The position numbers and the translations under genes are program-made. Shown here one piece after another: positions 6,734 to 60,574 of a DNA stretch of 64,000 nucleotides. This DNA is from Octopus vulgaris. Lineage: Eukaryota. Position 1 is the first letter of the stretch, and each line of letters begins with the position of its first letter. The stretch is taken from positions 992,001 through 1,056,000 of the forward strand of contig OX597830.1 in NCBI GenBank assembly GCA_951406725.2. The letters are read 5' to 3'. The notes beneath the pieces are model-generated. The model did no database searches. It worked only from the letters and a program-made list of their open reading frames with translations, and had not been told where the DNA came from.

Positions 6734-7315
6734 AAGAGAGTAACCACTATGTGGTCGACTCTAGCACTAAAAATAGATCAGCTAGGTTTCAGCCACAAAG
6801 AATTGTTTCCGATGAAATTTAGCACGACTACTAGCACAAATGAACAGGGCAAATAAAAATAACAAAATGCAGATTAGTTCTGAACAATTGTTTCGCTATT
6901 ACTAAATTATCTAATTTTACTCACATAACATATCTGTAGCTCTTCAGCCGAACCCGTCCAGAATACAATTTACTCAACCGCACGCTAGATTTTACCATAA
7001 CGATAAACACATGTGCGGTTCAGTCGATTGCATTCGCTGTTATAATTCAAGTGCCCCTGCCACAGCCCGCCAAAATTCACGGAAACAGATATTACATCCA
7101 AAATTAAATGTAGTATAATTGCAATCAACTAATAAGGGTGAGAAAATTGGATACTAATTTAATAGTACATCCATTTAACACCAAGTGGCTTAGTGCATCA
7201 AAACCAGGAATACAATGAATTTTATACATAAATATAAGAGAGTAACCACTATGTGGTCGACTCTAGCACTAAAAATAGATCCGCTAGGTTTCAGCCACAA
7301 AGAATTGTTTCCGAT
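6734..7315 (-). mobile_element. Non-coding HHR-containing element: 502-bp unit with an 80-bp terminal direct repeat (retrozyme/pLTR-like), inside (TA)n
   Basis: 6734-6813 matches 7236-7315 with 1 mismatch; HHR at 6877-6953; TA tracts on both sides. Confidence 0.75.
6877..6953 (-). ncRNA. Type I hammerhead ribozyme motif
   Basis: Minus strand reads GTTCGG-CTGAAGA-GCTA..(long loop)..TAGC-GAAA-CAATTG-TT-CAGAAC. Confidence 0.75.
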
Positions 7316-7438
7316 ATATATATATATATATATATATATATACACACTACTATAATATAGGATGAAGTTTTTTTACAGAAAAAAAATTCAACAAAAAAGT
7401 GGCAGCATATTAAAATACCTTTAAGATTAAAATTTTAA

Positions 7439-7595
7439 ACAACTTATAAACAAGGGCAAAAGAAAATTATTTCTATGCCAATATGCTGTTAACAGACTTT
7501 TAAATCGTGTAGTGGGTATATAAGTGGAAACTGACGATTTAAAAGTCTGTTATCAGCATATTGGCATAGAAATTTGCCCTTGCTTTATAAGTTGT
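7439..7595. repeat. Foldback (inverted repeat) with ~60-70 bp arms and a ~25-nt loop
   Basis: acaacttataaa.caagggcaaa...tttctatgccaatatgctg.taacagacttttaaatcgt is mirrored by acgatttaaaagtctgtta.cagcatattggcatagaaa...ttgcccttg.tttataagttgt. Confidence 0.85.
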
Positions 7596-7781
7596 ATATA
7601 TATATATATATATATATATAGGTGAGAAAGTTGGTGTGGGAAAGCACGTGATTGGATGTATAAAAAATAGAAAAGAGTGAAAAAAACTACAGAAGGCTTG
7701 TTTTATAAGGTTAAAGAATATATTTAAGTCGTTATGTGAGAAAAATGTTATAAAATTGTGTGTATAGTAACATAGTTTTTG

Positions 7782-7820
7782 GAGAAATAACCGGTTTCGT
7801 GTAAACTTTTCAAATTTCTC
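7782..7820 (-). ncRNA. Minimal type I hammerhead, U3-A8 core variant
   Basis: Minus strand reads GAGAAAT-TTGAAAA-GT(TTAC)AC-GAAA-CCGG-TT-ATTTCTC; perfect 7-bp stem I. Confidence 0.75.
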
Positions 7821-57775: not shown

Positions 57776-58305
57776 ATCAAGACCCACGCCTGAAAAAAAT
57801 ACTGGCAGCTCATAAAATAATAAAAAGTAAGAGACAACCTAAATCCCTAAAAAACCTCCTCACCAACGCAAAATTACACAACACAAACCCACCGCCCACC
57901 ATCAAAAAATGTGGTCGCCCCAACTGTAAGACCTGCATTCACCTCATTGAGGGATCGTCGTACAAGTTCCACTCGGGACACACATTCATCATAAAAAATA
58001 ACTTCACGTGCGCATCAAAAAATTTACTCTACGTCATAAGGTGTGAAGGATGCCACGAAGACTACATAGGGCAAACGAGCCTTACCCTCAGAGACAGAAT
58101 GACAGTTCACCGACAACAACTGAGGGACCCCTCCACAAGACAGATACCACTAAGTGGACACTTAGACCTTTGTGCACACAATAAGTCCCCCAAATTCTTA
58201 GTCTTCCCACTATACCAATGCTCGGACAACACCACAGACCAAACACGAATAAATAAGGAAAGTAATCTTATTCAAAAATACAGACCACAACTAAACATAC
58301 TCTAA
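57706..58305 (+). CDS. PLE linker, CxxxxCxxC Zn finger and GIY-YIG endonuclease (continuation frame)
   Basis: YLSTHNPR...KCGRPNCKTC...NLLYVIRCEGCHEDYIGQT...RMTVH...KE...LN*. Confidence 0.92.
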   Translation, partial: YLSTHNPRNAEAYTIIYNNIPQLNQDPRLKKILAAHKIIKSKRQPKSLKNLLTNAKLHNTNPPPTIKKCGRPNCKTCIHLIEGSSYKFHSGHTFIIKNNFTCASKNLLYVIRCEGCHEDYIGQTSLTLRDRMTVHRQQLRDPSTRQIPLSGHLDLCAHNKSPKFLVFPLYQCSDNTTDQTRINKESNLIQKYRPQLNIL

Positions 58306-59702
58306 CATACCCCCTGGAAGCACATCCAGAGCAAGCACACAGGGACGCGCGCACGCTCACAGCATATCGTGCGGGCGGGCACATGCGCGCATCGGCACGC
58401 ATAGGACACACTAGCGGGCATTGACCACACACATACGTGGCATGCACACGCATGCATTATATATATGTAGGTGATGTATGTGTGTGAGTGTTGTGTGTGT
58501 GTGTGTGTGTGTGTGTGTGTGCACTGTGTGCGTGTGTGTGTATATGCGTGTGTGTGCGCGCGTTGTGTGTGTGTGTGTGCACGTGTGTATATATGTGTGT
58601 GTGTGTGTGCACTGTGTGCGGGTGTGTGTGTATGTGTGTGTGTGTGTGTGTGAGCATTGTGTACGTGTGTATGTATTTACATATGTATCTGTTTTTATAT
58701 ATATATATATATATATATATGTGTGTGTGTGTGTGTGTGTGTATATGCATGGTATGTGTGTATATGTTAGTACTTTGTTTGTGTGTGTGTGCGGCATGTA
58801 GAGATATATTTGAGTGTGTACGCTATAGGTTTGTAATTTGTGTGTGTGTGGGGGGGAATTTTTTATATATATATATGTGTGTGTATGTGTGTGAAAAAAT
58901 ATATGTATGTGCATGTATGTATGTATGTATGTATGTGTGTATATATATATATATATATATGTGTATATATATGTGTGTGTGTGTATGTGTGTGTGTGTAT
59001 ATTTATTTGCATGTTTATGTGTGTATAAACATGTACATTATTTGCATGCGCATTGTGTATATGTATATTGTATGTATGTGTATTGTATATGTACGTGTAC
59101 AATTAAGTGTATATATTTGTGTGTATGTGTGCACTGTATATATGTACATTATAGGTGTGCTATATATGCATGAATACATGTATATGCATTGCGTGTATAT
59201 ATATGTATGCATTGTGTGTGTATGTATGTTATGTGTGTGTGTGTATATATATATTATATGTATGCGTACGTGTATGTGTATGCATTGTATGTATGTGTGT
59301 TGTGTGTATATGTGGTACATCTATGTATGTGTATGTAAACACTATTTATATGTATATGTGTATATAAGTATATGCATTGTCTATATATATATATATTATA
59401 TGTATGTATTGCGTATGTATATTGCATGCATATATTGTGTATGTATATTACTTACATGCTGTATGTGTGTATTGTATGTGTGTATATATATGCTAGGTGT
59501 ATTTGTGTGATATTTATATTATGTATGTATGTGTGCGTGTGCTGTGTGTGTGTGTGTGTGTGTGTGTGTGTGTGTGTGTGTGTATGTGTGTTATATATCT
59601 GTGTATGTTATATATAGATACATGTTATATTTGTGTGGTGTGTGTATATGTGATATATGTGGGTGCGTTGTGTGTGGGTGTGTGTGTTCTGTGTGTGTGT
59701 GT

Positions 59703-60447
59703 GTTGTTTGTATGTGGTGTGTGTTTGTATACTATGTGTGTGTGTGTGTGTGTTGTTGTGTGTGTGTGTTTGTGTGTATATATATGTGTGTGACAAACAG
59801 ACGCTGTCTGACCAGCAGGCACGGACACATCTATTCACACCCGCATACTAACCTCCTGATAACCCCAAAATCATTCATGCATAAAGGGGAAGTATACACC
59901 ACATTGGCTACTTCTTCTGTTCTCTCAGTTCAGCCTTTCTGCTAATGCTGACAGGTCAGTAAAAACATACTTAAAATATTCTGAGATGTACAAAAAATCC
60001 ATTTTAATTTTTGCTGTCAAAACGCTGTATATATATACCAAAGATTGTATATATATACATGTAATGTGACAATTTGCGACAACCAATAATTAACGCAACC
60101 AATTCCCAATAATATATTTGTTTTATCCTTTTCTGCCAAATTTTCCCAAATATTCTCATCACGCTATTGAACTTCTCTGTTACCAAACACTATATTTATA
60201 CATGTAATGTGACAATTATGTATAAAAAAACATTTTTGAATTCATAATATCCAATGTGACAATTATGTAAAAAACTTTTTTGAATGCATAATATTCAATG
60301 TGACAATTATGTAAAAAACTTTTTTTGAACCCATATTATTCAATGTTTCCTTAAATGTAACTTTTGACAATCTTTTACCAAAGAGTGAAACCGGTTAAGT
60401 AAATAAACATCGTTTAAATTGCATTTTCAAACCTTTTTTCTTATATA
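59703..60447 (+). repeat. Right (3') pLTR segment
   Basis: Mirror of 54113-54859. Confidence 0.95.
60360..60400 (+). ncRNA. Minimal hammerhead (U3-A8) in the 3' pLTR
   Basis: ACTT-TTGACAA-T-CTTTT(ACCA)AAGAG-T-GAAA-CCGG-TT-AAGT. Confidence 0.7.
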
Positions 60448-60574
60448 ATCCCACTCGTGCGATACCCCACAACTCAACTTTTTTATATATATATATATAT
60501 ATATATATATATATATGTATATATATATATATATGTATATATGTATATATATATATATATATATATATGTATAT

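Follow-up and report, generated by a model that had tools for sequence, protein, structure and literature searches.

How does one stretch of an octopus genome come to hold a dozen or so hammerhead ribozymes, and what are their palindromic stem III inserts for? The stretch is a 64,000-nucleotide piece of Octopus vulgaris DNA (assembly GCA_951406725.2, contig OX597830.1, positions 992,001 to 1,056,000 of the forward strand; hereafter the window, numbered from its first letter). A preliminary description listed type I hammerhead motifs at 14 coordinates, ascribed them to Penelope-like elements (PLEs) and non-coding passengers, and proposed that the palindromes act as family barcodes for dimerization. 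From sequence comparison and predicted pairing, we consider it probable that the window motifs are terminal-repeat hammerheads of Neptune-type and Hydra-like PLEs, together with retrozymes, and that they would cut best as a double hammerhead formed by two copies of the same family. It is unlikely that the palindromes keep families apart, one per family.

Overall, this is real and mostly known biology. Hammerheads with a palindromic helix III have been published for PLEs, including palindromic positions 15.2-16.2, division into families, the U3-A8 variant and low dimer activity (PMC4209133), and the legend of Figure S8 in PMC3088659 noted that a palindromic stem III allows dimers.

Hammerhead sites in the window and the genome

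The window motifs are genuine hammerhead-type motifs of high-copy families, and hammerhead-type sequence is present at all 14 coordinates. A type I descriptor demanding the core, stem II and stem I, with no requirement for a palindrome, gave 14 matches in the window, nine of them palindromic, whereas 100 local dinucleotide shuffles gave a mean of 0.72 matches (maximum 3) and 0.04 palindromic ones (maximum 1). Eleven of these matches fall at listed sites; the remaining three (29416, 46568 and 26320) lack a palindrome and look fortuitous. Mutations in the window copies make the descriptor miss 6877, 27530 and 32594. With an earlier descriptor version, applied to 120 loci and the window, 132 of 140 six-nucleotide inserts were palindromic against none of the one or two in shuffles, a count from a locus set dominated by targeted copies. 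The window as a whole is rich in (TA)n and (CA)n. An Rfam scan of the window (E ≤ 5) gave no hammerhead among the first 150 of 229 matches, which were microsatellite-driven, and a direct-repeat family search of the window returned microsatellite families only. A candidate at 5692 (minus strand) is treated as chance: among 218 loci only its own locus matched, and no genome-wide search was made for it.

The sites make up 11 insertions. Those at 47251, 47605 and 47849 form a single tandem-plus-inverted array, and 54160 and 60360 are the two ends of one Neptune element. Two of the Penelope elements behind the insertions are of Neptune type and two are Hydra-like; two families are tandem retrozymes, and there are unassigned relics besides. 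Intact copies are rarer than had been claimed: only 19165 and 21801 combine a fully canonical C3-G8 core with all stems. Both show the type I core CUGANGA...GAAA...UH at a three-helix junction with an open stem I, a core also found in family relatives of 6877, 18831 and 32594. The cores at 7782, 31469, 54160 and 60360 show the known U3-A8 covariation, and the Neptune-type sites carry known variants (U3-A8, U10.1-U11.1, a 2-bp stem II and U4C; PMC3088659). The three copies near 47 kb have a U3-G8 wobble core, and only their family lacks a Watson-Crick 3-8 pair.

Every family searched for in the genome (2.8 Gb, 227 contigs) turned out to be dispersed: first-look candidates numbered 455-1,634 and scored matches 40-49 per family. 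The 19165, 21801, 47 kb and 60360 families are young (copies 97-100% identical); copy identity is about 92-96% in the 6877 and 7782 families and about 80-85% in the 10900 and 32594 families.

Penelope-like elements and retrozymes that carry the hammerheads

Neptune-B, a near-complete Neptune-type PLE delimited by domains, motifs and repeats, occupies 54113-60447 on the plus strand. Its coding region (54831-58305) runs through three overlapping frames with DKG and YLDD motifs, a CxxxxCxxC linker and, C-terminally, a GIY-YIG domain; an inverted 5'-truncated copy (54113-54859) lies at its 5' side, and the 3' region is microsatellite-rich. The two hammerheads (cores at 60364, plus, and 54196, minus) have U3-A8, a CCGG insert and the triplet GUU. 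Just upstream of the hammerhead, the terminal repeat holds a 44-nt tandem repeat (3.1 copies; 54214-54354 and 60206-60346), and the N-terminal frame contains a 48-nt duplication (55854-55953). A long interspersed nuclear element (LINE) with broken frames begins at the Neptune-B 3' end (60421-62649, plus) and encodes an apurinic/apyrimidinic (APE) endonuclease and a reverse transcriptase (RT; Pfam Exo_endo_phos_2 and RVT_1).

Neptune-A (7620-9594, minus) is a broken Neptune-type PLE, recognized from Pfam RVT_1 and GIY-YIG matches and from its family rows. RT pieces (8603-9594) and the GIY-YIG domain (7949-8521) remain, and the hammerhead at its 3' end has U3-A8, a core at 7813, a 2-bp stem II, the CCGG insert and a predicted cut after 7789. 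The two RTs are 57-61% identical. An RT followed by a C-terminal GIY-YIG domain with a CX2-5CxxC linker, the Neptune arrangement, is present at 54831-58305 and at 7949-9594, a placement made by motif and not by a tree. At the 5' edge of Neptune-A lies a plus-strand frame (9410-9997) with a weak HTH_29 match (E 1.4e-4), which we take to be Tc1-like. A short end of a Neptune-B relative (31460-31558, plus; 85-86% identical to 60351-60447) carries the 31469 hammerhead, with U3-A8, a core at 31473, U10.1-U11.1, CCGG, GUC and a predicted cut after 31506. Neptune PLEs and the window families share DKG, a C-terminal GIY-YIG domain with a CX2-5CxxC linker, microsatellite targets and the inverted 5'-truncated copy; the window families differ in that both use U3-A8 hammerheads with a common CCGG insert.

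The proposal that autonomous PLEs of both the Neptune and Naiad types coexist here holds for the two Neptune-type elements. No Naiad layout (an N-terminal GIY-YIG domain upstream of the RT) was found in the window by tblastn with the Neptune RT, the Neptune endonuclease and the Hydra-like frame; these searches returned only C-terminal endonuclease layouts or lone RT relics, and left the relics at 10900, 27530 and 32594 without an element type. Naiads are described as lacking canonical hammerheads and as having left remnants in cephalopods (PMC8557442).

Several families had been taken for non-coding passengers. This stands for two tandem retrozymes, whereas 19165 and 21801 are the 3' ends of protein-coding Hydra-like elements. 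The 19165 element (19130-20400, minus) is a 5'-truncated 3' end, identified from a truncation series and a full copy, L252. Its intact hammerhead has a core at 19238, a 51-nt stem II region, CATATG, GUA and a predicted cut after 19169. The family shows progressive 5' truncation among 30 loci, and in L252 a full tandem copy of 4.68 kb, bearing terminal repeats of 267 bp, encodes an RT with a C-terminal GIY-YIG domain. Upstream stretches (L219-L224) had given no coding partner for the 19165, 6877 and 32594 families; L252 then supplied one for 19165. The 21801 element (21744-22582, minus), also a 5'-truncated 3' end, matches locus L121 at 96% over 860 nt. Its hammerhead is intact (core at 21883, 55-nt stem II region, CACGTG, GUA, predicted cut after 21810), and the genome holds at least 40 exact 151-nt copies. 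L121 contains an uninterrupted RT-GIY-YIG frame of 908 aa (2958-5681, minus), of which near-identical copies exist; a Pfam search of this frame gave no match at E ≤ 0.1. Where a cysteine linker would precede the endonuclease, this frame has instead about 140 aa rich in Ser, Asn and Gly.

The L121 and L252 proteins read RIRW, DKT, CxxC and CxH, which are marks of the Hydra clade in PMC8557442; the CxCX5C linker is present in L252 (19165 family) and absent from L121 (21801 family). The Hydra-like assignment is thus one by motifs and not by a tree with reference Hydra RTs, and on the motif list of that source a Nematis-like reading of the L121 group was set aside. Two more families with a long stem II (L253 and L254) match the same Hydra-like protein, and tblastn with the L121 frame detected two RT relics of the group, at 17134-17478 (minus) and 10244-10438, with 38-39% identity. 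Shared with the Hydra clade as described in PMC8557442 are the C-terminal GIY-YIG domain, DKT, the R-W motif, the CxCX5C linker (L252), CxxC, CxH and (TA)n targets, and an octopus Hydra family is listed there. Unlike published Hydra elements, the window-related ones exceed 3 kb, and the L121 family has its Ser/Asn-rich tract instead of linker cysteines. Loop 2 is always short (3-10 nt) in the Hydra hammerheads of File S2 of that paper, unlike in the window Hydra-like ones, and long loops 2 (29 and 34 nt) are listed in that file only for two spike-moss PLE-X elements.

Tandem non-coding units that each carry a type I hammerhead, as in non-LTR retrozymes, were found in the 47 kb and 6877 families. 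The 47 kb array (47036-48058, both strands), recognized from repeats and family matches, lies in (TA)n and consists of 354-nt units in tandem on the minus strand plus one inverted copy. Its hammerheads have U3-G8 and G10.1-U11.1 wobbles, CTATAG and GUC, with predicted cuts after 47256 and 47610 (minus) and after 47886 (plus). The unit has a GC content of 45% and a predicted circular fold of -111 kcal/mol, a figure without a shuffle control; units of the family measure 348-376 nt. By hand count, the first 100 of the family's 243 exact matches comprise 93 with U3-G8, six with U3-A8 and one with C3-G8, and five of the six U3-A8 copies have the canonical C11.1. These sequences suggest an older, stronger subfamily followed by a weakened master that spread. 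This young retrozyme of 354 nt, with U3-G8 fixed as a wobble core, is a form for which we found no earlier report.

The 6877 unit (6734-7313, minus) is a retrozyme-like non-coding tandem unit in which 7223-7313 repeats 6721-6811; its period is 502 nt in the window and 534-535 nt in subfamilies. The hammerhead core starts at 6947, with a 46-nt stem II region, CAATTG and a predicted cut after 6883. Triplet and stem I are mutated in the window copy, and the family reads GUC with a 7-bp stem I. Relatives that are 75-77% alike form three-copy tandem arrays with three hammerheads each and no PLE protein match. Elsewhere, L314 (G000:C1:10836000-10839500) is a second long-arm retrozyme family: a four-copy array of a 594-nt unit, 99.5% identical, in which each copy has a hammerhead with a 70-nt stem II and CGTACG. 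Among the sequencing runs found to hold these sequences, none is listed as RNA; four contig sets covered 21-30 of 30 bins, but such contigs tell nothing of strand, molecule ends or level, and tandem DNA would produce the same joins.

With metazoan non-LTR retrozymes (PMC7229834; bioRxiv 10.64898/2026.07.22.740005) the window families share tandem non-coding units of about 350 nt, GC below 50%, a self-paired circular fold, a type I hammerhead and coexistence with PLEs. They differ in the fixed U3-G8 and G10.1-U11.1 wobbles of the 47 kb family, in the 500-600 nt units with a long stem II, and in PLE-style tandem-plus-inverted inserts in (TA)n; the published ones have circular RNA, whereas those here are known from genomic DNA. 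In total, four families have coding partners, and two have tandem arrays without one. The retrozymes are likely moved by Penelope-like elements.

The commonest local form of the hammerhead has a stem II region of 40-70 nt. It occurs at about 17,650 sites, in Hydra-like elements and in retrozymes of 500-600 nt. The proximal helix of this long stem II covaries, with five of 11 predicted pairs changed on both sides among nine sequences, and a looser set of eight sequences shows covariation in helix I and at the base of stem II; the distal part forms bulged hairpins, family by family. The descriptor of PMC4209133 is set to 3-7 bp for stem II, 3-10 nt for loop 2 and 2 nt for the insert, whereas most sites here carry a 4- or 6-nt insert and the long stem II lies beyond it. 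Since the published limit for loop 2 is 10 nt, the long-arm sites would be missed by that search pattern. This suggests that invertebrate hammerhead counts are too low, and the Naiad 'half-core' cases deserve a relaxed search. We found no literature report of a long stem II in octopus or of palindromes as family barcodes; Lunse et al. 2017 may hold similar variants.

Palindromic inserts and predicted pairing between copies

The palindrome was said to differ by family, yet CCGG is common to four window families (7782, 31469, 54160/60360 and the 10900 family) and CAATTG to two. The hexamer ACCGGT had been read out of register; it includes A15.1 and U16.1, and the true insert is the 4-mer CCGG. 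Likewise, CAGCTG is probably not the palindrome of the 32594 family, which mostly reads CAATTG, as does the unrelated 6877 family. Among the 66 pairs formed by 11 window families and a 353-nt sister of the 47 kb unit, seven share an identical insert, and reuse is heavy genome-wide.

The genome-wide pattern searches left the insert centre free, and the tallies are hand counts of the first 100 matches from the start of contig 1, weighted by copy number. With a short stem II there were 2,074 matches (control 294), palindromic in 64 of the first 100; with a 40-70 nt spacer, 17,653 (control 253), palindromic in 70 of the 93 readable among the first 100; and in the U3-A8 class, 6,850 (control 149), palindromic in 83 of the first 100, a listing in which three sites appear twice. 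The fraction expected by chance is about 1/16 and 1/4. Helix I has at most 2 bp next to the core in 10 of 37 matches taken as family representatives, so that some pattern matches are decayed or false. Fourteen of the 16 possible C-NNNN-G palindromes occur, counting CTATAG from the window, and CAATTG, CATATG, CGATCG, CACGTG and CAGCTG are each found in at least two unrelated stem II types. In the first 100 of the U3-A8 class, CCGG is present 69 times over at least seven stem II types and CATG 14 times, while CGCG and CTAG are absent. The largest long-stem clade mixes CATATG, CATGTG and CACGTG, of which CATGTG pairs fully with both others. Similarly, five Hydra families of one cnidarian genome have the same helix III, actt-t-aagt (File S2, PMC8557442). 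In two loci, L244 and L246, the hammerhead insert is a 10-nt palindrome, CTGACGTCAG, whose length would allow folding as a monomer or a dimer.

A barcode model would have the palindromes selected to differ, each family dimerizing and cleaving only its own kind in trans. Different palindromes are indeed predicted to discriminate: helix III of homodimers is predicted at -6.4 to -10.7 kcal/mol for inserts of at least 4 nt (-1.7 for the 2-nt insert), against -3.8 kcal/mol or weaker between different window-family inserts, with -6.9 for the 18831 family and the 353-nt sister. The 47 kb unit and this sister (L240; 236 of 359 aligned columns identical) keep a helix I that is cross-compatible in one direction (6 bp), yet differ in insert, CTATAG against CTCGAG, with a predicted -1.4 kcal/mol for the mixed helix and -7.2 and -10.7 for their own. 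A third relative, L283, reads CCCGGG, and L260 and L273 have helix I in common with CGATCG and CAATTG, respectively. Between such sisters the palindrome would be the sole predicted filter. Nevertheless, we judge the barcode model quite unlikely. Only two of the four C-NN-G palindromes are seen, CCGG prevails across families, the C-NNNN-G palindromes, with only 16 options, recur in unrelated stem II types, and wobble variants bridge neighbouring palindromes. In addition, helix I, which in the modelled double hammerhead is formed between two molecules, already separates families, and tandem copies supply a partner in cis. In six of the seven same-insert pairs helix I cross-pairs over at most 2 bp, the seventh being the related 31469/60360; it cross-pairs over at least 4 bp in five of the 66 pairs, and only 31469/60360 is compatible in both helix I and insert.

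The idea that the palindromic helix III serves dimers fares better: self-complementary inserts occur far above chance, and a wobble-pairing variant is favoured without strand bias. In the genome pattern searches, CATGTG was found 1,660 times and its DNA reverse complement CACATG 97 times, and CGATTG 159 times against 39 for CAATCG. As RNA, CAUGUG self-pairs with tandem G-U, whereas CACAUG gives two A-C mismatches. Because the two are reverse complements, neutral decay of CACGTG or CATATG should yield both equally, and since in a monomer the insert centre would be a loop with no need to pair, the CATGTG excess speaks for a helix between molecules in those RNAs that went on to be copied. Dimer pairing thus appears to be under selection.

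The asymmetry could alternatively be mutational, whether through A-to-I editing or because the RNA intermediate is copied with a strand bias, and so be uninformative on dimer selection. A-to-I editing is extensive in coleoid cephalopods, and a sense-strand A>G change turns CATATG into CATGTG. However, over six families substitutions are strand-symmetric (A>G 181, T>C 190; non-CpG C>T 203 on 19,860 C and G>A 149 on 16,382 G), with no sense-strand excess of A>G or C>T in all or in shared changes, and editing limited to duplex would itself imply duplex formation. We therefore regard a mutational origin as very improbable.

The preferred reading, a double hammerhead between same-family copies, would work as follows. 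The two copies would probably be neighbours on one tandem transcript, with helix III (the palindrome) and helix I both formed between them, and because both helices are intermolecular, the insert needs only self-complementarity. It could then drift by G-U wobble steps (CACGUG - CAUGUG - CAUAUG; CGAUCG - CGAUUG - CAAUUG). Own-kind cleavage would arise from closeness in cis and from helix I; between sister lineages, the palindrome would add an incidental further filter. A unit freed by double cutting would be circularized and then reverse-transcribed by a PLE enzyme, starting at a fixed point 40-220 nt beyond the cut, to give the tandem and inverted insertions in (TA)n. Ends were read for six elements, and all of them stop 39-220 nt beyond the predicted cut, a distance compatible with copying from a circle or from a multimer left uncut. 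PMC4209133 and PMC7229834 are the sources for dimer cleavage and for the circle model.

Instead, the motifs might be mainly monomeric or non-cutting RNA structures, such as protein-binding or priming signals, with the palindrome as a by-product. PLE hammerheads are weakly active in vitro even as dimers (PMC4209133), eight of nine Xenopus retrozyme dimers were uncleaved (bioRxiv 10.64898/2026.07.22.740005), the young 47 kb family has a wobble core, and sequence 3' of the predicted cut is kept in all inserts. On the other hand, the catalytic pair covaries from C3-G8 to U3-A8 over thousands of sites, and the wobble-pairing variant exceeds the mismatching one 17-fold; together these require constraints of a catalytic and an intermolecular type, which makes this explanation rather unlikely.

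Several points weigh against the double-hammerhead reading, in which cleavage, expression and circles are predictions. In invertebrate retrozymes, monomers with a 2-bp helix III and a tetraloop are able to cleave (PMC7761336), so that in the 6-nt class a dimer may help rather than be required. The spread of the young 47 kb family with its wobble core suggests, from its sequences, that cutting need not always be efficient. A few amplified lineages account for most of the CATGTG excess, and independent events are therefore few; the second wobble pair, CGATTG against CAATCG, differs only 4-fold. One long-arm family, L262, is fixed for the non-palindromic CCGAGG (four of the listed rows), for which tandem G-A pairs are predicted to hold the dimer; helix I of the L262 copy is weak. 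Finally, the distal part of the long stem II has no common fold in either alignment. A functional role of the long-arm stem II, in docking or regulation, combined with selection of palindrome swaps to prevent cross-cutting among sisters that still share helix I, is quite unlikely; if true, it would amount to ribozyme-level kin discrimination between competing retroelements.

As in the type I hammerheads of PLE pseudo-long terminal repeats (PMC4209133), those of the window lie near the 3' end, fall into many consensus families per genome, include U3-A8, have palindromic positions 15.2-16.2 and loop 3, agree with a dimer model, and occur mostly as single truncated copies and inverted pairs. What goes beyond this known biology is modest: the long-arm class, the asymmetry between wobble variants and the retrozyme with a wobble core, none of which turned up in our literature searches. 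PMC7761336 and PMC8557442 describe the role of PLE hammerheads in vivo as unknown. The strand-specific G-U excess offers genomic evidence that a dimer helix forms in the RNAs actually copied, a point left open by in vitro work with its weak activity. The genome also supplies natural pairs, with the same palindrome and a different helix I and the reverse, for testing specificity.

Decayed ends and other repeats

The 10900 site is an old element end (10877-11182, minus) with a decayed U3-A8/CCGG hammerhead (core 10932, predicted cut after 10905). Relatives, about 80-85% alike, have a TTGATAA core with CCGG or its CpG-decay forms; in 21 other loci the insert is CCGG in eight, CTGG in seven, CCAG in four and another in two, and in the window copy 5 nt are deleted and the insert reads CCCG. 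The 18831 site belongs to a 160-nt head-to-head pair of short element ends (18793-18958, both strands), seen as a self-inverted match. Its minus hammerhead has a core at 18864 with U4C and a predicted cut after 18835, and the plus arm (core 18887) is decayed. The insert, CTCCGTG, is a mutated copy of the odd-length self-complementary family insert CTCCGAG (13 family matches), and the family helix III, actc-c-gagt, is the form published for Hydra-1/2_aJap (File S2, PMC8557442).

A minimal hammerhead relic at 27500-27600 (minus; core 27561) has 12 relatives among incidental loci and the family insert CG, i.e., ACGU. Many copies of the 18831 and 27530 families read CCGACGA (U4C) in the core; U4C has been reported to reduce activity while permitting viroid infectivity (PMC3088659). 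The 32594 site is part of an old inverted pair of element ends (32310-32682, both strands), recognized from repeats and family rows, with a plus relic (core 32532, C3 lost, CAGCTG) and a previously unlisted minus relic (core 32457). The family has a 77-nt stem II region and a CAATTG insert, read in 22 of 29 relatives, against CAGCTG in none of the 29; the closest relatives have CAACTG or CAGTTG, and there may be a small CAGCTG subfamily.

Self-inverted elements of 160-270 nt, in which no hammerhead was detected, lie at 16349-16617, 48240-48409 and 7436-7598. A dispersed repeat of 150-230 nt, like a short interspersed nuclear element (SINE) in size, is present in six copies that are 68-88% alike (13320-13525, 30098-30261, 36170-36325, 37667-37772, 40298-40530 and 45961-46187).

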